From positions 1 to 8,452 of the IMG/VR virus record IMGVR_UViG_2802429224_000005: 8,452 nucleotides of DNA. One strand, 5' to 3'. Made by a program: the position numbers and the translations under genes. Every line of letters starts with the position of its first letter. Positions within the stretch are counted from its first letter, which is position 1. Shown here one piece after another: positions 1 to 8,452 of this stretch. This DNA is from a virus. Its lineage: Duplodnaviria > Heunggongvirae > Uroviricota > Caudoviricetes. The notes under the pieces were generated by a model that was given only the letters and a program-made list of their open reading frames with translations, made no database searches and was not told the DNA's origin.

Positions 1-3
1 AAG

Positions 4-480
4 ATGGTGGAAATCAATAATCAACGTAAGGCGTTCCTCGATATGCTGGCGTGGTCAGAGGGAACTGATAACGGACGACAGAAAACCAGAAATCATGGTT
101 ATGACGTCATTGTTGGCGGAGAGCTATTCACTGATTACTCCGATCACCCTCGCAAACTTGTCACGCTAAACCCCAAACTCAAATCAACAGCCGCCGGACG
201 TTACCAGCTTCTTTCCCGTTGGTGGGATGCCTACCGTAAGCAGCTTGGCCTGAAAGATTTCTCTCCGAAAAGCCAGGACGCTGTGGCATTGCAGCAGATT
301 AAGGAGCGTGGCGCTTTACCGATGATTGATCGCGGTGATATCCGTCAGGCAATCGACCGTTGCAGCAATATCTGGGCTTCACTGCCGGGCGCTGGTTATG
401 GTCAGTTCGAGCATAAGGCTGACAGCCTGATTGCAAAATTCAAAGAAGCGGGCGGAACGGTCAGAGAGATTGAGGTATGA
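4..480 (+). CDS. R: Phage endolysin, lambda R-type lytic transglycosylase (158 aa)
   Basis: Full-length ORF starting at ATG 4-6. Translation [26 protein letters not shown]... matches my recollection of lambda R almost residue for residue, including the catalytic Glu19 in the AWSEGT context. The stop overlaps the next gene's start as ATGA (477-480), as in lambda lysis cassettes. Confidence 0.93.
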
Positions 481-944
481 GCAGAGTCACCGCGATTATC
501 TCCGCTCTGGTTATCTGCATCATCGTCTGCCTGTCATGGGCTGTTAATCATTACCGTGATAACGCCATCGCCTATAAAGAACAGCGTGATAAAAAAGTCA
601 GTGAGCTGAAGCAGGCGACCGCCACCATTACTGACATGCAGCAGCGCCAGCGTGCTGCTGATGCACTCGATGCTAAATACACGAAGGAGTTAGCTGATGC
701 GAAAGCTGAAAATGATGCTCTTCGGCGCAAGCTTGATAATGGTGGCAGGGTGCTCGTCAAAGGAAAATGCCCTGTGCCATCCTCAGCCGAAACCTCCAGC
801 GCCTCCGGCATGGGCAATGATGCCACCGTCGAACTCTCTCCAGTTGCTGGACGAAACGTTCTCGGTATCCGGGACGGAATTATCCGCGACCAAACAGCAC
901 TGAGAACGCTTCAGGAATACATCAGGACGCAATGCCTTCGATGA
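477..944 (+). CDS. Rz: Rz-type i-spanin (inner-membrane spanin subunit, 155 aa)
   Basis: Immediately follows R with an ATGA overlap; GAGG RBS 5 nt upstream. N-terminal hydrophobic helix ([18 protein letters not shown]), then a charged coiled-coil-like region ([54 protein letters not shown]). The N-terminal half resembles lambda Rz as I recall it. Contains an embedded +1-frame ORF (Rz1). Confidence 0.85.
697..903 (+). CDS. Rz1: Rz1-type o-spanin (outer-membrane lipoprotein spanin subunit, 68 aa), fully embedded in the +1 frame of Rz
   Basis: ORF lies wholly inside Rz in another frame. AAGGAG RBS at 684-689, 7 nt before ATG 697. Product [24 protein letters not shown]... has a lipoprotein signal with a lipobox-like VAGC, followed by a proline-rich stretch ([16 protein letters not shown]) similar to lambda Rz1 (KPPPPPAW). 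Confidence 0.8.
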
Positions 945-1118
945 TAGCGATAATTTTACTCATCATCCTTCACATCTGGCTCTGTAGACAGGGTGGTGCT
1001 TACTTCTGGAGCGAATCCAGATTAAACATCTCATTGCTGATGCTTGAATTTAAGCATATGGCGCGCGGTAAGGGGCTGCGTTGAGACAAGAGCCAGTTCA
1101 TTACAAATACCAGGATTT

Positions 1119-1144
1119 TGCCTCGCATTCGCGGGGCTTTTTTA
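1119..1144 (+). terminator. Candidate rho-independent terminator in the Rz-rha intergenic region
   Basis: GC-rich imperfect hairpin (CCTCGC-ATTC-GCGGGG, about 6 bp stem with one G-U pair) at about 1121-1136, followed directly by a T tract (CTTTTTT, 1137-1143). Not energy-scored. Confidence 0.35.
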
Positions 1145-1287
1145 CATCTGAATTTCACCGCGCATCTCACGCGCATATTAACGAGAGCCTTTCAGTAAGC
1201 GAGCCTGAGAAATGCCGTTATAGGTGGCGACCTCTCTCGGGCGGCTTTTCTGTGAGACAGGCTCACTTTCTAAAAGGTAAAGACGCT

Positions 1288-1812
1288 ATGAATAATCCGT
1301 CAGTTATTCCGGCCTTTGACTTCCGAGAAATGGTGCAAGCTAAAAACGGAGAGGTCGTTACCACATCCAGAAAAGTTGCTACGTACTTCGGAAAGCGACA
1401 CGGTGATGTGCTCAGGAAAATCGAGCAGGTTAAGGCCGATTGCTCAAGAGAGTTTAGCCAACGCAATTTTGCGTCGGCTGATTATATCGATGAGCAGGGT
1501 AAGGTTCGCCCGATGTATAGCCTGACGAAAGATGGCTGGATCATGGTTGTTATGGGATTCACCGGGAAAGCTGCTGCGGCTATCAAAGAAAGCTACATTT
1601 CAGCGTTCAACTGGATGTCTGAGCAACTTAGCCGTCGCCTGGCCATGGGTGAAGAAATGCAGCACCGCTACGCCATCAAAGAAACGCGCTCAAAGTTGAA
1701 GGGAACGATCGGTAGCCGGTTGATGAATGAGCGGAAGAAAGAGAAGCGCGTTCTTGAGCTCGAGCATGAGCACATCATGCAGGTGACGCAGCCAGAATTG
1801 CTGATTGGCTGA
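1288..1812 (+). CDS. rha: Rha-family phage regulatory protein (Phage_pRha domain), 174 aa
   Basis: Translation from ATG 1288 (MNNPSVIPAFDFREMVQAKNGEVVTTSRKVATYFGKRHGDVLRKIEQ...YIDEQGKVRPMYSLTKDGWIMVVMGFTGKAAAAIKESYISAFNWMSEQL) follows the conserved pattern of the Rha N-terminal domain. The six-frame track extends this ORF to 1081, but that extension starts at TTG and runs through the terminator-like hairpin, so I prefer ATG 1288, which has an AAGG purine-rich patch about 10 nt upstream. Confidence 0.8.
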   Translation: MNNPSVIPAFDFREMVQAKNGEVVTTSRKVATYFGKRHGDVLRKIEQVKADCSREFSQRNFASADYIDEQGKVRPMYSLTKDGWIMVVMGFTGKAAAAIKESYISAFNWMSEQLSRRLAMGEEMQHRYAIKETRSKLKGTIGSRLMNERKKEKRVLELEHEHIMQVTQPELLIG

Positions 1813-1878
1813 TTGACATTACAGAAACTCTTCACTGAGGTGCTTGGACAATGGCGCACCTAACGATGCGCCTAAAAC

Positions 1879-2139
1879 TCAACCCCTGTTGAAATTCTCT
1901 TTTGCTTCATTAATGAGATCTGAAGCGATCCGAAAGCTATTAGGGTTGGAATTGCTAATCAAACCTTTAACTGTTTCTTCTAATTCAATCAGCGCCTGAT
2001 TGCTGTGCGCAGACCTTGCAACGTTAGTCAATAAGGCAACCAAAATTGCCTCATGGGCAATGGCATGTTCTTTATCAGTTGTTTCTATGCGAAGCGGGCT
2101 GTTGGATGATCGTAGGCTTGTTTGGTTGAACGAAGACAT
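1879..2139 (-). CDS. Hypothetical protein (86 aa), predicted mostly helical; function unknown
   Basis: Minus-strand ORF with a canonical GGAGG Shine-Dalgarno about 6 nt upstream of the ATG (reverse complement of 2140-2155 reads ...ATATAGGAGGAAGAATG). Convergent with rha and divergent from the small + ORF at 2193. No family recognised by eye. Confidence 0.55.
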   Translation of the reverse strand: MSSFNQTSLRSSNSPLRIETTDKEHAIAHEAILVALLTNVARSAHSNQALIELEETVKGLISNSNPNSFRIASDLINEAKENFNRG

Positions 2140-2192
2140 TCTTCCTCCTATATGTCATTGGTAATTTTAACCGCCTTTGAAGGTATAACACT

Positions 2193-2399
2193 ATGTCCGA
2201 CATCTACCAAATCACGCTAACCACCCAAACAGGCGAAACCTTCACTGGCAAGATGTCACGACGTCAGCATGAGCTGGTTAATGGCTTTGTGCCGCTGGCG
2301 ACCGAGACAGGCGAGTAGCTGTACTTTGCTCCTGGTGATGCGAAGCGCGTGCAGTTCACGCCAGTAGCGGCAGGACAGACAGAGCAAACGACGGAGTAA
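2193..2399 (+). pseudogene. Small phage ORF interrupted by an in-frame amber (TAG) codon: 41 codons to TAG 2316-2318, reading frame stays open a further 26 codons to TAA 2397-2399
   Basis: Translated codon by codon: MSDIYQITLTTQTGETFTGKMSRRQHELVNGFVPLATETGE-[TAG]-LYFAPGDAKRVQFTPVAAGQTEQTTE-[TAA]. Either a 41-aa product, a nonsense-disrupted 68-codon gene, or an amber-suppressible gene. The RBS is weak (GAAGG about 11 nt upstream). Confidence 0.35.
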
Positions 2400-2496
2400 C
2401 CTATGGCTAACGATGGAGAGCCTAGGTAATGTCCGCCAATTATCTTTCCCGACTCTGGCAACTGGCATCCATGAGCCTTTTTACATATGCTGAGTA

Positions 2497-3402
2497 TTAA
2501 CTGATATATCCATGAGCTTTGAGATAATTTTCCGCAATAATCATACCTACTGGATTGATGACTAGTGAGTCAAGTTCTGTAAGGGTTGAAATACCAAAAG
2601 AGTCGAGAACTAATTTTGTAGCTGGGAATGCTTCATAAAATGATGCATCAGATGTAAGAGTGTCATAACCCGTTCTTTTTGATAATAACTCTAAGTAATT
2701 GATATTATATATTTTATCTGAGAAAAATACGCCTTTAATTTCTAATAGCTGCTGATTTAGGCGTTTGAGGGTGAAATGTTCTCCAAGAAATTTTATATAA
2801 TCTGTTTCATAAACAGCATACATTGACCTATGGATCATGTAATTTTCTTCCAAGGAAATGTTAGGTAGTGAAAAATGAGTACTTTTTTTCTCTGCAAGTT
2901 CTGTGATATTTATACTTCCTACCATCTTATTGATTGAACGTAAAAAATATACAAATGCCAAAAACTTAATATCATTAGTGGTCAGTCTGGATGTTGTATC
3001 TAACGCTTGATCGATCAAAATGCTTTGGTCTTCTTGATCGTTTTCAATTTTAGTAACTATTAACTCCTTAAGAAGTTCTGATTTTGCATCAAACCCCTTT
3101 CTTGCGACCTGAACGACTGCTTGATTGAGGGTGTACTGAATATCGGGATCAGCGAGTTTTGCTCTTAGTTTTTCATCAACATCTTTAGATAGTTTTTCTG
3201 CAATTTGGTGACCAAATTCTTGAGCCCGTGAGTCGACTAAAGCGAATGCATCTTCACGAAGCGAAGCCATTTCACTTTTGACCATTAACTGGCAAATAGC
3301 CATGACCTCAGTAGTGGTGTTGCCAAAGTAGGCATCACCTGTAACTTGTATAGCTGAGGAGTTATCACCCACACTTTGACCGGATTTCTCGAATAAGCTC
3401 AT
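2497..3402 (-). CDS. Hypothetical protein (301 aa), downstream gene of an AT-rich two-gene moron operon; no recognisable catalytic motif; candidate effector or sensor of an undescribed exclusion/defence module
   Basis: Long minus-strand ORF in a compositionally distinct AT-rich segment. The start ATG (3402-3400) overlaps the stop TGA (3401-3399) of the upstream small membrane-protein gene as ATGA, implying translational coupling. N-terminus carries GQSVGDNSSAIQVTGDAY, a near-copy of the motif at the C-terminus of the upstream protein. Confidence 0.7.
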   Translation of the reverse strand: MSLFEKSGQSVGDNSSAIQVTGDAYFGNTTTEVMAICQLMVKSEMASLREDAFALVDSRAQEFGHQIAEKLSKDVDEKLRAKLADPDIQYTLNQAVVQVARKGFDAKSELLKELIVTKIENDQEDQSILIDQALDTTSRLTTNDIKFLAFVYFLRSINKMVGSINITELAEKKSTHFSLPNISLEENYMIHRSMYAVYETDYIKFLGEHFTLKRLNQQLLEIKGVFFSDKIYNINYLELLSKRTGYDTLTSDASFYEAFPATKLVLDSFGISTLTELDSLVINPVGMIIAENYLKAHGYIS

Positions 3403-3644
3403 TCTTTGTCCCTTTCATTAATAGTTATGTTGCCACCAATTTGTATACCGCTAGAGTTATCGCCGATTGTTTGGCTAACACCTTGCTCTTTAGCTTTGTT
3501 GCTTTTTAGATTTGCTAAGGCTGTTAGAAAAACGACCAAACTCGCTAATGCTGCTAGCGCTGTGGATAATGTTTGACTGGTTATGGCTTGATAGCCAAAG
3601 CCTAAAGCCGAACAAAAAGATACAAATACGATTAATTTTCTCAC
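3399..3644 (-). CDS. Small predicted membrane protein (about 81 aa, two hydrophobic helices), upstream gene of the two-gene moron operon
   Basis: Minus-strand ORF with a probable GTG start at 3644 preceded by GGAG with a 6-nt spacer (minus strand reads CTGGAGATTTTCGTG). The alternative ATG at 3686 would put the start inside terS. Product VRKLIVFVSFCSALGFGYQAI...LSTALAALASLVVFLTALANL...GVSQTIGDNSSGIQIGGNITINERDKE has two hydrophobic segments and then a soluble tail carrying the shared motif. Confidence 0.6.
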   Translation of the reverse strand: MRKLIVFVSFCSALGFGYQAITSQTLSTALAALASLVVFLTALANLKSNKAKEQGVSQTIGDNSSGIQIGGNITINERDKE

Positions 3645-3665
3645 GAAAATCTCCAGAGATAAAAC

Positions 3666-4193
3666 ATGGCACTTACTGACAAGCAAGAAATGTTCTGTCG
3701 CGAGTACCTCATCGATTTAAACGCCACGCAAGCGGCTATTCGGGCGGGGTACAGCGCAAAGACAGCTAACCGTACCGCATCCGAAAACCTGTCAAAACCT
3801 GACATCAAGTTAAGAATCGCCGAACTGAAAGCGCAACGCAATGATCTTGTTGGTATTAATGCAGAATATGTACTTAATCGCCTTCTTGAAATCGACCAGA
3901 TGGATGTGCTCGACATTCTCCTGCAAAACGGTGAGTTAAAGCCCATTAAAGACTGGCCTAAGGTATGGCGTACAACGCTATCAGGAATGGATGTCGTGGA
4001 GATGGTATCCGCAGATAGTGCCGCACTTCTGAAGAAAATCAAATGGCCTGATAAGGTTAAAAACCTCGAACTTCTTGGTAAGCATGTTTCCGTTCAGGCG
4101 TTTAAAGAACAATCTTCGCACGAGCTAACAGGCAAAGACGGCGGCGCAATTCAGATTGAAACATCACCGATGAGCACTCTATTCGAAAAATGA
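3666..4193 (+). CDS. terS: Terminase small subunit, Terminase_2 (P27-like) family, 175 aa
   Basis: N-terminus MALTDKQEMFCREYLIDLNATQAAIRAGYSAKTANRTASENLSKPDIKLRIAELKAQR matches the conserved signature of Terminase_2-type small subunits (LTxKQxxFCxEYLxDxNATQAAIRAGYS). Stop overlaps the terL start as ATGA (4190-4193). Confidence 0.85.
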   Translation: MALTDKQEMFCREYLIDLNATQAAIRAGYSAKTANRTASENLSKPDIKLRIAELKAQRNDLVGINAEYVLNRLLEIDQMDVLDILLQNGELKPIKDWPKVWRTTLSGMDVVEMVSADSAALLKKIKWPDKVKNLELLGKHVSVQAFKEQSSHELTGKDGGAIQIETSPMSTLFEK

Positions 4194-5605
4194 ACTCGAT
4201 TAATCCTATCTTTGAACCGTTCATTGAGGCGCATCGCTACAAAGTTGCCAAAGGCGGTCGAGGTAGCGGTAAGTCATGGGCAATTGCGAGACTGCTTGTT
4301 GAAGCGGCGCGTCGGCAGCCTGTGCGTATTCTTTGCGCTCGTGAACTGCAAAACAGTATCAGCGATTCGGTAATCCGACTGCTTGAAGACACCATAGAGC
4401 GGGAAGGGTATTCGGCTGAGTTTGAAATTCAGCGTTCAATGATTCGTCATCTCGGAACGAATGCTGAATTCATGTTCTACGGCATAAAAAACAACCCTAC
4501 GAAGATTAAATCGCTCGAAGGCATTGATATCTGCTGGGTGGAAGAAGCGGAAGCGGTAACGAAGGAATCGTGGGATATCCTGATTCCAACCATCCGTAAG
4601 CCGTTCTCTGAAATATGGGTGAGTTTCAACCCGAAAAACATACTCGACGATACCTATCAGCGGTTCGTCGTAAATCCTCCCGATGATATTTGCCTACTGA
4701 CGGTGAACTACACCGACAACCCGCATTTTCCTGAAGTTCTCCGTCTGGAGATGGAAGAGTGCAAACGCAGAAATCCGACACTGTATCGTCACATCTGGCT
4801 TGGTGAGCCAGTAAGCGCAAGTGATATGGCAATCATCAAACGTGAATGGCTTGAAGCTGCAACCGATGCGCACAAGAAACTCGGATGGAAAGCGAAAGGT
4901 GCGGTTGTCTCTGCACATGACCCATCAGATACAGGGTCAGATGCTAAAGGTTATGTATCGCGTCACGGTTCGGTTGTTAAGCGCATTGCCGAAGGTCTGC
5001 TGATGGACATCAACGAGGGTGCTGACTGGGCTACTTCGCTGGCGATTGAAGACGGCGCTGACCATTACCTGTGGGATGGTGATGGTGTTGGTGCCGGGCT
5101 ACGCAGACAGACAACGGAAGCGTTCTCCGGTAAGAAAATCACCGCCACGATGTTCAAGGGCAGCGAATCGCCATTCGATGAAGATGCACCGTATCAGGCC
5201 GGAGCATGGGCTGATGAAGTCGTACAGGGTGACAACGTTCGCACTATTGGTGATGTATTCCGCAATAAGCGAGCGCAATTCTATTACGCACTGGCTGACA
5301 GGCTGTATCTGACATATCGGGCGGTTGTCCACGGTGAGTATGCAGACCCCGACGACATGCTGAGCTTCGATAAAGAAGCGATAGGCGAGAAGATGCTGGA
5401 GAAGCTGTTTGCAGAACTGACGCAGATTCAGCGCAAATTCAATAACAACGGGAAGCTGGAGCTTATGACTAAGGTCGAAATGAAGCAGAAGCTCGGGATC
5501 CCATCTCCTAACCTGGCTGATGCGTTGATGATGTGTATGCATTTTCCGGAGTCGGCTGCGCAACCCGACTATTCTAGTTACTCAATTCCTTGTGGTGTAG
5601 GTTGA
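4190..5605 (+). CDS. terL: Terminase large subunit (ATPase/nuclease), Terminase_3/PBSX-like, 471 aa
   Basis: Walker A-like VAKGGRGSGKS near the N-terminus and Walker B-like acidic motif DICWVEEAE. Size and position directly downstream of terS and upstream of portal are typical. Confidence 0.9.
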   Translation: MNSINPIFEPFIEAHRYKVAKGGRGSGKSWAIARLLVEAARRQPVRILCARELQNSISDSVIRLLEDTIEREGYSAEFEIQRSMIRHLGTNAEFMFYGIKNNPTKIKSLEGIDICWVEEAEAVTKESWDILIPTIRKPFSEIWVSFNPKNILDDTYQRFVVNPPDDICLLTVNYTDNPHFPEVLRLEMEECKRRNPTLYRHIWLGEPVSASDMAIIKREWLEAATDAHKKLGWKAKGAVVSAHDPSDTGSDAKGYVSRHGSVVKRIAEGLLMDINEGADWATSLAIEDGADHYLWDGDGVGAGLRRQTTEAFSGKKITATMFKGSESPFDEDAPYQAGAWADEVVQGDNVRTIGDVFRNKRAQFYYALADRLYLTYRAVVHGEYADPDDMLSFDKEAIGEKMLEKLFAELTQIQRKFNNNGKLELMTKVEMKQKLGIPSPNLADALMMCMHFPESAAQPDYSSYSIPCGVG

Positions 5606-5606
5606 T

Positions 5607-7805
5607 ATGGCAGAAAAAAAGATGACTGACTGGCATCGCAAGGTGCTGTGCAACTTTGATAATGCCTGGTCAGCAACGCAGGATATGCGTGAGCAGATTA
5701 TTGAGGCTCAACGTTTCGTACGGGTGTCCGGCGCACAGTGGGAAGGCAGCACAAACGCTGGTTACTCATTTGATGAAGGCAGGTTTGAGCATTATCCGCG
5801 TTTTGAACTGAATAAGATTGCTCGTGAATGTGATCGCATCATTGGCGAGTATCGGCAGAATCGCATCAGCGTTAAATTCAGGCCGAAGGATGACAAGGCA
5901 TCGGAAGCGTTAGCCGAAAAGATGAACGGCAAATTCCGCGCTGATTATCAGGAAACATCCGGTGGCGAAGCGTGTGATAACGCATTTGATGATGCTGTAA
6001 CGGGCGGATTCGGTTGTTTCCGCATGTGTGCTGATTACGAAGATGAAATGGATCCGAGTAACGAGCAGCGACGCATCAGCCTTCTTCCTGTTTACGACCC
6101 AGCGACATGCGTCTTCTTCGATCAGGACAGCAAGCAATATGACCGCTCTGATGCTATGTGGGCTATGGAAATGTTCTCCATGACGCCTAAAGCGTTCGAG
6201 GCTGAATACCCTGATTCCATCGCGGCAAGTCTTTCTCGTGATGACACTGGCACTCAATATGACTGGTCAACGCCTGATGCCATCTATGTTGGGCGCTACT
6301 ACGAAGTTCGCATAGAGAAGGTGAAGCTCACGGCGTGGCGCAACCCTGTTAGCGGAGAAACGGCAATCTATGATGAAGAGCAAATCAAAGATATTGTCGA
6401 CGAGCTGACCGATGGCGCATTCGAACTGATTGGTGAGCGAACGGTGAAGAAACGCCGCGTTTATTGCGGCCTTCTGTCTGGCGCTGAATGGCTGGAAGAA
6501 CCGAAGCGTATTCCGGGCGAACATATTCCACTCATCCCGGTATATGGGCGTCGCTCATTTGTTGATAATCAGGAGCGAATCGAAGGCCACGCAGCAAAAG
6601 CGATGGATGCACAGCGTCTTGAGAACCTGATGGTTTCCATGATTGCAGATAACGCCACTCAGGCTGGCGGTGATGGTATTCCTATCGTGGATGTTGATTT
6701 TATTCCCGGTCCATTAATGAATCACTGGGCAGAGAGGAATAAGAAAAGACCTGCAGTTCTTCCTATGACCAGCAAGAAGGACAAAAACGGAACAGTCATT
6801 TCAGAAGCTCAGGTTGCTGGCTGGACACCTCCGACACAAATGCCTCCTGCTCTTGCCGGGCTATTGCAGTACACCGGAACGGCTATTCAGCAAATTACAG
6901 GTGCGTCGCAGCTTGAGAACATGCCGAGCAACGTCGCTACCGATACCGTTGATAGTATCTTTAACCGGATGGATACGCAGTCCTATATCTACATGGACAA
7001 CATGGCTAAATCCATGCGCCGCGCTGGCGTCGTGTGGCTTTCTATGGCTCGTGAAGTCTATGGCAGCGATACGCCAATGCGCATCGTTAATGAGGACGGC
7101 AGCGATGACGTGGCGCTAATGACTGGTGAAGTGGTTGACCGTCAGACAGGGCAGGTTATCGCGCTTAACGACCTTTCGCAGGGTAACTATGAAGTGACTG
7201 TCGATGTCGGTCAGTCGTTCGCTACTCGCCGTGATGCAACGGTTAAGTCGTTACTTTCCATGCTGGCACTTATCCCGCCAGGGACGCCGAAGCACGACCT
7301 TGTATCGTCGATGATTCTCGACAATATGGACGGCGAAGGGATGGACGACCTTAAAGAATACAACCGCAATCAGTTGCTTCTGTCTGGCGTTATCAAGCCG
7401 AGAACGCCTGAAGAACAGCAGATGGTTGAACAGGCGAAACAACAACAGGCCAGTCAGCCAGATCCGGCTATGGTTGCAGCGCAAGGTCAGCTTCTTGCTG
7501 GTCAGGCTGAATTGCAGAAAGCGCAGAACGAACAGGCAGCCATTCAGGTTAAAGCATTCCAGGCACAGACTGATGCTCAGGTTGCAGCGGCAAATGTTGT
7601 GAAAATCCTCGCATCTGCCGATAGTCAGCAGAAATCTGATATCCGCGAGGCTCTGAAACTGCTCGGACAGTTCCAGCAACAGCAAGGAGATAATGCCCGT
7701 GCTGATGCAGAGCTTGTCCTGAAAAGTCAGGCACAGGGCCATGCGCAGCGCATGGACATCAGCAGCATCCTGCAAAAATCAACTCAGCAACAACCACAGC
7801 AGTAA
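5607..7805 (+). CDS. Portal protein, P22 gp1-like, 732 aa, with a Gln/Ala-rich C-terminal helical extension
   Basis: Several blocks match P22 portal as I recall it (RRRVY, PGEHIPLIPVYG, PRTPEEQQ, DPAMVAAQGQLLAGQAELQKAQN, ARADAELVLK, QRMDISSILQ), and length is close to the 725-aa P22 gp1. Starts 1 nt after the terL stop. Confidence 0.92.
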   Translation: MAEKKMTDWHRKVLCNFDNAWSATQDMREQIIEAQRFVRVSGAQWEGSTNAGYSFDEGRFEHYPRFELNKIARECDRIIGEYRQNRISVKFRPKDDKASEALAEKMNGKFRADYQETSGGEACDNAFDDAVTGGFGCFRMCADYEDEMDPSNEQRRISLLPVYDPATCVFFDQDSKQYDRSDAMWAMEMFSMTPKAFEAEYPDSIAASLSRDDTGTQYDWSTPDAIYVGRYYEVRIEKVKLTAWRNPVSGETAIYDEEQIKDIVDELTDGAFELIGERTVKKRRVYCGLLSGAEWLEEPKRIPGEHIPLIPVYGRRSFVDNQERIEGHAAKAMDAQRLENLMVSMIADNATQAGGDGIPIVDVDFIPGPLMNHWAERNKKRPAVLPMTSKKDKNGTVISEAQVAGWTPPTQMPPALAGLLQYTGTAIQQITGASQLENMPSNVATDTVDSIFNRMDTQSYIYMDNMAKSMRRAGVVWLSMAREVYGSDTPMRIVNEDGSDDVALMTGEVVDRQTGQVIALNDLSQGNYEVTVDVGQSFATRRDATVKSLLSMLALIPPGTPKHDLVSSMILDNMDGEGMDDLKEYNRNQLLLSGVIKPRTPEEQQMVEQAKQQQASQPDPAMVAAQGQLLAGQAELQKAQNEQAAIQVKAFQAQTDAQVAAANVVKILASADSQQKSDIREALKLLGQFQQQQGDNARADAELVLKSQAQGHAQRMDISSILQKSTQQQPQQ

Positions 7806-7895
7806 TTAACCCATAACGTGCAATGGCTGTCTTTATGAGGCCTTGCACCCTATTGCCTTCCGATGGGCTGAACATCGAGTAAACAGGGGTAACAA

Positions 7896-8452
<557 letters not shown>

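Follow-up and report, generated by a model that had tools for sequence, protein, structure and literature searches.

A motif shared by the adjoining ends of two overlapping Escherichia coli prophage genes is consistent with a variant of the amyloid-signalling pair

Amyloid signalling as described for the fungal HET-S/NWD2 and the bacterial BASS motifs involves two proteins encoded by adjacent collinear genes, for which 4-bp overlaps are common. The effector ends in a motif of approximately 20 to 25 amino acids, a copy of which stands at the N-terminus of the sensor. The oligomerised sensor nucleates an amyloid fold, which templates the motif of the effector and activates its membrane-targeting domain. 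In bacteria, signalling of this kind has so far been shown for one system, Bab/Agp, while earlier there were only predictions concerning NLR/Bell pairs of multicellular bacteria. Bab/Agp is an experimentally shown abortive-infection (Abi) system from E. coli prophage hotspots, in which Agp is a TPR-GreA/B-C-PIN (TGP) protein and Bab a small Bell-domain protein (Ibarlosa et al., bioRxiv 10.1101/2024.11.07.622273). Here we analyzed a stretch of 8,452 nucleotides (IMG/VR record IMGVR_UViG_2802429224_000005, positions 1 to 8,452; hereafter the window), whose host element is a P22-like E. coli prophage. Two overlapping genes on its minus strand, encoding a membrane protein of 81 amino acids and a protein of 301 amino acids belonging to the LPO_1073/Vpar_1526 family, share a motif that resides at the C-terminus of the small and at the N-terminus of the large protein. 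Such a layout, with an effector C-terminal and a sensor N-terminal motif and a 4-bp overlap, is the signature of amyloid signalling, which went unrecognised in a preliminary description of the duplicated motif. The feature is real, conserved and co-evolving, and is best read as a variant of the amyloid-signalling pair in which the sensor belongs to a new family and the effector is reduced to a minimal membrane protein.

The core of the motif comprises residues 58-72 of the small protein (QTIGDNSSGIQIGGN, 3473-3429, minus strand) and residues 9-23 of the large protein (QSVGDNSSAIQVTGD, 3378-3334, minus strand), and follows the common pattern QxxGDNSSxIQxxG. Nine of the 15 aligned residues are identical and 13 are positive (BLASTP E=5e-5 for this single comparison). 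The Smith-Waterman (SW) score of 52 was reached in 3/5000 and 7/5000 shuffles of the whole proteins, and by none of 5000 shuffles confined to the tail and the N-terminus, by which the local composition was kept. With 0-7 of 5000 shuffles attaining the score, the similarity, which the preliminary description had left to be judged against shuffled controls, is significant. A hidden Markov model (HMM) of the motif assigned 40.6 bits to the copy of the small protein, which is itself part of the model. The segments to which the duplication had originally been allotted, 3482-3417 (residues 55-76 of the small protein) and 3381-3328 (residues 8-25 of the large protein), both hold the copies.

At the DNA level only 28 of 45 nucleotides of the two copies are identical, for which reason a recent slip or gene conversion was rejected. 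In comparison with its Pantoea orthologues, the small gene showed proportions of synonymous (pS) and nonsynonymous (pN) differences of 0.37-0.40 and 0.07-0.09, respectively, corresponding to a dN/dS ratio of 0.13-0.18, and is thus a real coding gene. Together with the annotation of the open reading frame (ORF) by PGAP, this ratio speaks in favour of its translation, the lack of which had initially been named as a refuting condition. For codons 1-30 of the large gene, six synonymous changes at 19.7 sites were counted, as compared to one nonsynonymous change at 70.3 sites. Since synonymous changes dominate, both copies are translated and under purifying selection. The initial proposal of an old, selectively maintained duplication is borne out by the diverged DNA, by the selection acting on both copies and by the retention of the motif in both partners.

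The gene pair is widespread. A profile search among 1.84 billion cluster representatives (E <= 1e-3, clusters at 50% identity) revealed that the family of the large protein comprises 1575 clusters. Among the best 150 of these 1575 clusters, nearly all proteins begin with a variant of the motif, typically ..KQxQxVGDNSTAIQAGGDVxI. Homologues of both proteins are present in Enterobacter, Serratia, Pantoea, Klebsiella, Leclercia and Providencia, and in every enterobacterial context examined (Providencia, Klebsiella, Serratia, Enterobacter, Pantoea) an upstream gene for a protein of 81-84 amino acids with transmembrane (TM) segments and the motif directly adjoins the Vpar_1526 gene. The enterobacterial host prophages possess differing terminases, and the Serratia module is found next to an insertion sequence (IS) element outside any phage. 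We also sampled 48 loci from genomes, metagenomes (gut, soil, water), viral contigs and prophages, and scored as a partner any ORF lying upstream for which one or two TM helices were predicted and whose tail matched the N-terminus of the large protein with an SW score >= 27. In 41 of the 48 loci such a mini-protein was found, while several of the remaining loci contained a frameshifted or more divergent one. The distance between the end of the first and the start of the second gene is mostly -26 to +19 nt in the related loci, and in orthologous loci the junction is either the identical ATGA overlap or a gap of a few nucleotides. Mini-proteins were also identified in Pseudomonas, Burkholderia, Marinobacter, Lysinibacillus and many metagenomes; for three of four that were looked up, a Vpar_1526 gene follows downstream. 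The database search with the motif, performed with a 42-amino-acid query, returned only proteins of <= 74 amino acids. From Enterobacterales to relatives in soil, in the gut and among Firmicutes, the motif is kept in both partners.

To this survey also belong a few loci with tandem Vpar_1526 paralogues (L011, 2121-3882; L029, 610-2340), of which at least those of L011 each contain the N-terminal motif; it might link tandem paralogues to one another. In a Lysinibacillus prophage (L083, 2708-2953) and a related metagenome contig (L015, 77-283), homologous ORFs of approximately 70-80 codons are located directly upstream of the mini-protein gene. Their products contain two CxxC pairs resembling a zinc ribbon and may be a third component of the Firmicute version.

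The two copies were further compared for co-variation. For 31 non-redundant pairs, SW scores of tail versus N-terminus were calculated and subjected to 20000 permutations. The cognate pairs gave a mean score of 52.8 and the non-cognate pairs one of 37.6; none of the 20000 permutations reached the cognate mean. Independent divergence along the same tree predicts equal scores, and the cognate excess thus indicates a mutual constraint. Several variants are common to both partners of a pair, namely LQAD (L045/L056), GDNSN[IV]V (L013), NVQI (L060) and QKVGNNST (L015). Judged by these alignments, cognate copies co-evolve. The preliminary description had offered two readings of the duplication, a shared interaction strand or an ancestral membrane-anchored protein split into two. 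The first one gains support from the cognate co-variation, while the second is not needed, the split pair being the dominant form (41/48); single fused homologues, whose existence had been raised as a check, do occur, albeit rarely (P0226, P0201).

The motif comprises about 20 amino acids with the consensus Q-x-[VI]-[GS]-[DN]-[NG]-S-x-[AG]-[IVL]-Q-[AVI]-G-[GR]-[DN]-[VIL]-x-[IV], in which one Q is invariant and the second nearly so. Compared to Swiss-Prot, it is enriched in Q (2.8x), N (2.7x), G (2.2x), I (2.0x) and V (1.4x) and depleted in L (0.24x) and K (0.7x), whereas P, W and C are absent. A bias toward Q/N/G/V/I and against K/P/L has been reported for BASS and beta-solenoid proteins (Dyrka et al. 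2020, bioRxiv 10.1101/2020.01.06.895854). Length and composition of the motif agree with the BASS plan (approximately 20-25 amino acids, conserved G/N/Q, Q/N/G/V/I increased and K/P/L decreased). The sole Pfam family touching the tail of the small protein is RHIM (PF12721; 12.2 bits, E 0.14), which was matched by the sequence NSSGIQIGGN. Indeed, GIQIG of the small protein is identical to the core of the RIPK1 RHIM, for which the tetrad (V/I)-Q-(V/I/L/C)-G has been published. At the position of the tetrad there is IQIG in the small protein but IQVT in the large protein of the window and IQAG in the family consensus. As the consensus is IQAG and just two of 42 motif copies gave a RHIM match (best E 0.057), we treat this as a resemblance and not as membership. 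A search of the PDB with the motif yielded no meaningful match. In the Leclercia-type homologue P0015, the unit TQVTGDL is tandemly duplicated within the motif (residues 18-33), which recalls the pseudo-repeats described in some amyloid signalling motifs.

The small protein is a hairpin of two TM helices with a basic N-terminus (MRK), which suggests that the N-terminus is oriented inward. Because the basic linker KSNKAKE follows the second helix, the tail bearing the motif is predicted to be cytoplasmic according to the positive-inside rule. The mini-proteins fall into two classes with two TM helices (..PGFDS..) and one TM helix (..W[IVL]FSG[IV]G..), respectively. Both classes are basic after the last helix and, by the same rule, a cytoplasmic tail is predicted for each of them. 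For the small protein itself we obtained 31 homologues at 56-93% identity, and no family match in curated family libraries. A possible relationship to holins was tested with PHROG 565, but the E-value of 0.074 was insignificant, and the gene is situated outside the holin-lysozyme-Rz cassette on the opposite strand.

The large protein matched NCBIfam NF045477 with 97.5 bits (cut-off 45; E 1e-27) over residues 27-295, and PF28206 is the precomputed Pfam assignment for all of its homologues. Vpar_1526 was the sole domain found in it by searches of Pfam and NCBIfam. An AlphaFold2 (AF2) monomer model based on 60 homologues (predicted local distance difference test, pLDDT, 87; predicted template modelling score, pTM, 0.80) is all-alpha from residue 30 on, while residues 1-29, which hold the motif, were modelled as a coil with a pLDDT of 60-72. 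No neighbour of the all-alpha fold was detected in the PDB or BFVD. Residues 31-150, with a long helix (30-72) and the sequence DPDIQY..NQAV.QVARKG, are well conserved, in contrast to the C-terminal half. The homologue P0016, for instance, shares 93% identity within residues 1-30, 80% within residues 31-150 and 36% within residues 151-301. A conserved part followed by a diverging one is what would be expected if a signalling part were combined with a recognition part that diversifies. In the literature, we encountered Vpar_1526 only in a proteomics table of Veillonella parvula membrane fractions. Table 1 summarizes the positions of all features.

Table 1. Positions of the two genes, their predicted parts and associated signals in the window
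Feature	Position	Strand	Basis
Small gene, 81 aa, GTG start, TGA stop at 3401-3399; candidate membrane effector	3399-3644	minus	ORF list, PGAP WP_001228633
GGAG Shine-Dalgarno-like site, 6 nt 5′ of the small-gene GTG at 3644	3651-3654	minus	Read from the sequence
TM helix 1 of the small protein, residues ~3-21	3582-3638	minus	Kyte-Doolittle profile
TM helix 2 of the small protein, residues ~25-46	3507-3572	minus	Kyte-Doolittle maximum 2.2
Motif copy 1, C-terminal tail of the small protein, QTIGDNSSGIQIGGNITIN, residues 58-76, contains GIQIG	3417-3473	minus	BLASTP, shuffles
ATGA overlap, 4 bp, small-gene stop / large-gene start	3399-3402	minus	ORF list, sequence, PGAP
Large gene, 301 aa, LPO_1073/Vpar_1526 family; candidate sensor	2497-3402	minus	NCBIfam NF045477, PF28206, PGAP
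Motif copy 2, N-terminus of the large protein, QSVGDNSSAIQVTGDAYF, residues 9-26	3325-3378	minus	BLASTP, shuffles; AF2 coil
Conserved N-terminal part of the all-alpha domain, residues 31-150	2953-3312	minus	Alignment; 42-82% identity; AF2 pLDDT 85-97
Fast-diverging C-terminal half, residues 151-301; candidate ligand/phage-recognition part	2500-2952	minus	19-61% identity to homologues
Low-GC island holding both genes	2401-3600		Composition profile; 30-42% GC vs ~50% in the flanks

Among the closest counterparts of the locus is Bab/Agp (ECOR25, BASS11), which likewise consists of two collinear neighbours in prophage regions of E. coli, with a motif of approximately 20 amino acids at the C-terminus of a small membrane-targeting effector and at the N-terminus of a large sensor. 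Unlike Bab, with its helical Bell domain and 'MEPIS' N-terminus, the putative effector described here is a bare hairpin of 81 amino acids, and unlike Agp, the putative sensor is an all-alpha Vpar_1526 domain of 301 amino acids devoid of TPR, GreA/B-C and PIN. Further counterparts are BASS1-10 (Dyrka et al. 2020) and HET-S/NWD2, with which the pair has in common the positions of the motifs at the effector C-terminus and the sensor N-terminus and the collinear genes, often overlapping by 4 bp. The BASS1-10 motifs are also alike in having about 25 amino acids, conserved G/N/Q, abundant Q/N/G/V/I and little K/P/L, and in both cases all-in-one fusions coexist with split pairs. The partner domains are different, since the BASS1-10 sensors are NOD-like receptors (NLRs) of the NACHT or NB-ARC type and their effectors contain Bell or HeLo, TIR or CHAT domains. 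Moreover, BASS1-10 were reported in multicellular Actinobacteria and Cyanobacteria, whereas unicellular Proteobacteria, Firmicutes and prophages hold abundant members of the present family. Finally, the 2TM or small-membrane-protein effectors of abortive-infection systems (e.g., the 2TM effector models of PADLOC) resemble the small protein as short membrane hairpins encoded beside a cytoplasmic sensor gene in a mobile element, but known 2TM effectors are triggered by nucleotides or protein domains rather than through a shared terminal motif. As far as can be judged from sequence, the pair displays all hallmarks of the plan common to BASS and FASS, i.e. a terminal motif shared by adjacent genes, collinear overlap, the characteristic composition and pair specificity.

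A link to Agp was found in Nitrosomonas (L086, 3001-6213; L087), where the gene of a 1TM mini-protein of the present class overlaps the start of a gene for an Agp-like PIN-TPR-GreABC protein of 1266 amino acids. This protein matched PF20698, the PIN domain of the TPR-GreAB-C-PIN system, with 38.6 bits (cut-off 27.8). Its N-terminus MWNNKQSISAGDKSINLIAGRDIYY is similar to the tail STQTIHSGNNSTNFQAGRDVNI of the mini-protein (SW score 48; 0/5000 local shuffles). A tblastn comparison of the Nitrosomonas TGP protein with phages gave no match. Approximately 25 similar mini-proteins of 70-72 amino acids (..STQTIRSGDSSTNVQAGRDVNI..) are akin to the Nitrosomonas one, and members of this group were absent from the viral contigs searched.

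Relatives in which the components are joined provided further information. The fusion P0226, present on one 1.6-kb contig, consists of two TM helices, motif, linker, motif and domain. As both motif copies are retained, it resembles a read-through fusion caused by the loss of a stop codon. In P0201, a single TM helix is placed directly on the domain, and there is one motif copy. In other proteins of 470-485 amino acids (P0198, P0229; L055, 104-1519), an HNH-like nuclease region is fused in front of a degenerate motif and the Vpar_1526 domain. The nuclease region scored 19.4 bits with Pfam HNH_2, just under the cut-off of 21 bits. For the idea that it represents an ABC-3C effector we did not find support in Pfam beyond this sub-threshold match, and the idea was dropped. 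Since HNH-like or TM segments are fused to the N-terminus in the all-in-one relatives, this end of the protein is marked as the attachment point of the effector.

Based on these data, we propose with moderate confidence that the pair is an abortive-infection module built on the amyloid-signalling plan, composed of a Vpar_1526 sensor and a 2TM hairpin effector. The large protein would be the cytoplasmic sensor. Its helical core is conserved, its C-terminal half evolves fast and would detect a cue, most probably one derived from an infecting phage, and its first ~26 residues hold a disordered motif rich in Q/N/G/I/V. The small protein would act as the effector, whose membrane hairpin exposes the motif tail to the cytoplasm on a short basic linker. 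The cue would induce oligomerisation of the sensor, and the gathered N-terminal motifs would then adopt a stacked beta-arch (cross-beta) fold. This fold would act as a template for the tails of the small protein, which carry the same motif, and would thereby cluster the hairpins. Clustered hairpins might damage the inner membrane, so that the infected cell would die before phage release. The module might equally be labelled a superinfection-defence device. Amyloid formation, the trigger, membrane damage and the anti-phage function are all inferred from the architecture and evolution of the pair, which in our opinion is probably an uncharacterised, very widespread anti-phage module.

A number of observations weigh against this proposal. 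The putative sensor is neither an NLR (NACHT/NB-ARC) nor a TGP protein, and the hairpin without family match contains no Bell/HeLo-type or other immune domain. In PADLOC-DB 2.0 no family matched the large protein, and the best result for the small protein, the 2TM effector model PDLC00709, was insignificant (E 0.042, 11.5 bits). Our literature search found no mention of the LPO_1073/Vpar_1526 family in a defence context. The RHIM score of 12.2 bits lies below the gathering cut-off of 20 bits, and the few BASS11 residues named in the published text (I87-G88-S89-V90, Q92, D99-N100) do not fit the register of the motif. In the AF2 model of P0226 the domain was confident and both motifs were disordered (pLDDT < 50); the model says nothing of multimeric states and neither supports nor refutes the cross-beta idea. 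The TGP link depends on a single gene pair on two contigs, for which composition-adjusted BLASTP gave no alignment. The motif HMM failed to detect the sensor-side copy of the TGP protein, since an I stands there in place of the invariant Q. Furthermore, the tandem-paralogue loci L011 and L029 are without a TM mini-protein upstream, and a consensus scan of the module revealed neither a promoter nor a terminator.

Of the other explanations, the main rival is a constitutive tether, which we consider rather unlikely. Here, a stable hetero-oligomer would be held together by conventional beta-strand pairing between the motifs, without any switch, and the mini-protein would anchor the Vpar_1526 protein at the inner membrane, e.g., for superinfection exclusion or envelope sensing. 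The detection of Vpar_1526 in membrane fractions of V. parvula and the fused relative P0201, with its TM helix straight on the domain and a single motif copy, are in line with this idea, and a shared, co-varying motif would be given by any specific interface. A terminal, proline-free, Q/N/G-rich stretch of approximately 20 amino acids, however, is a better fit to signalling amyloid motifs than to a folded interface, and it was disordered in the AF2 model of P0226, even though both copies are part of one chain. Anchoring is not the only role of the motif, because members without a TM partner and the HNH fusions keep it. Doubtful, to a greater degree than the tether, is an arrangement resembling a toxin-antitoxin system, in which the large protein would restrain the tail of a membrane toxin via the motif until its loss or titration, e.g., upon infection, frees the toxin. 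The presumed toxin gene comes first and a regulatory DNA-binding domain is missing, although the two genes are tightly coupled by the 4-bp overlap. An inhibitor role is also hard to square with the all-in-one TM-domain fusions. The mini-protein is more conserved (80-93%) than the large protein (56-66%); its weak likeness to 2TM effector and holin profiles is insignificant (E 0.04-0.07). Both the tether and the restrained toxin are compatible with the co-variation but fit less well with the composition of the motif and the all-in-one relatives.

Slightly less credible still is the assumption that the motif acts independently in each protein without mutual contact, either by self-oligomerisation or as a tag for a host factor, the similarity stemming from shared ancestry (fission or duplication) and common constraint. 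A common external reader would not favour likeness of cognate over that of non-cognate copies. Rare fused proteins and the presence of the motif in members lacking a TM partner would agree with the assumption, but the module moves as a two-gene unit across unrelated genomes and phage types, which speaks against a specific host factor. The last explanation, that a short match of 15 residues containing the G, N, S and Q frequent in linkers is a chance or low-complexity product, or that the small ORF is no gene, has a vanishingly small probability, the former being ruled out by BLASTP (E 5e-5), the shuffles (0-7/5000) and the conservation of the motif in dozens of divergent pairs, the latter by the dN/dS ratio (0.13-0.18) and the PGAP annotation.

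More speculatively, and with somewhat less confidence than in the proposal itself, we suggest that Vpar_1526 proteins and their 1TM/2TM mini-proteins may form one of the largest bacterial amyloid-signalling immune families (~1600 clusters at 50% identity), with a new motif class (Q-x-[VI]-G-[DN]-N-S-x-[AG]-I-Q-[AIV]-G-[GR]-[DN]-[VI]-x-[IV]) and a hairpin effector. In the same tentative picture, the motif core of enterobacterial prophages would be the RHIM pentapeptide GIQIG, and cross-beta templating would assemble the hairpins into a lethal lesion. Should this picture hold, many unicellular bacteria and phages would employ amyloid signalling, which would be no speciality of multicellular ones, and different sensor families (Vpar_1526, TGP) would plug into one effector via interchangeable motifs. 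The data supply a functional hypothesis for a large family hitherto without a known function and suggest that the principle, equipped with a minimal effector, occurs widely among ordinary Proteobacteria and Firmicutes as well as in their prophages. The E. coli module is compact (1.2 kb) and open to direct testing, and the cognate co-variation provides natural material for studies on the specificity of templating.

According to PGAP, the plus strand before the module encodes a holin, a lysozyme, an Rz-type lysis protein and Rha, and the plus strand past it the small and large terminase subunits, the portal and the capsid. Between Rha and the gene of the small terminase subunit (terS), the minus strand contains a 'hypothetical protein' of 81 amino acids and an 'LPO_1073/Vpar_1526 family protein' of 301 amino acids. 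With the lysis and Rha genes on one side and the terminase genes on the other, the two genes would constitute a self-contained moron. The module is a low-GC moron in differing prophage types, always next to lysis genes, and also occurs in the IS-flanked non-phage setting. The 1.6 kb around it were recovered at 99.6-99.8% identity from 13 of 5426 complete E. coli genomes, and near-identical copies exist in prophage-derived IMG/VR contigs and E. coli chromosomes. A tblastn search with the large protein in 50,697 GenBank phage records gave no match at E <= 1e-3; the module seems to be restricted to prophages of natural isolates.

Some minor observations concern the neighbourhood. An 81-nt stretch of the window (3667-3747; also L088, 1501-1581), which on the plus strand contains the first codons of terS and on the minus strand immediately precedes the small gene, shares 92.6% identity with P22/BTP1 DNA at the start and upstream of the minus-strand moron gene pid. 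By this match, the module occupies the slot of pid, with which it may possibly have its upstream control region in common; a consensus promoter scan of the stretch found no promoter. Between Rha and the module, there are a short plus-strand coding sequence (2193-2399), which PGAP classified as a pseudogene with an internal stop, and a minus-strand gene (1879-2139) for a hypothetical protein of 86 amino acids. In a Klebsiella prophage possessing the module (L005, 6726-7787), a protein of 353 amino acids with a RelA_SpoT domain is encoded beside the lysis genes and may be a moron of the toxic small alarmone synthetase type.

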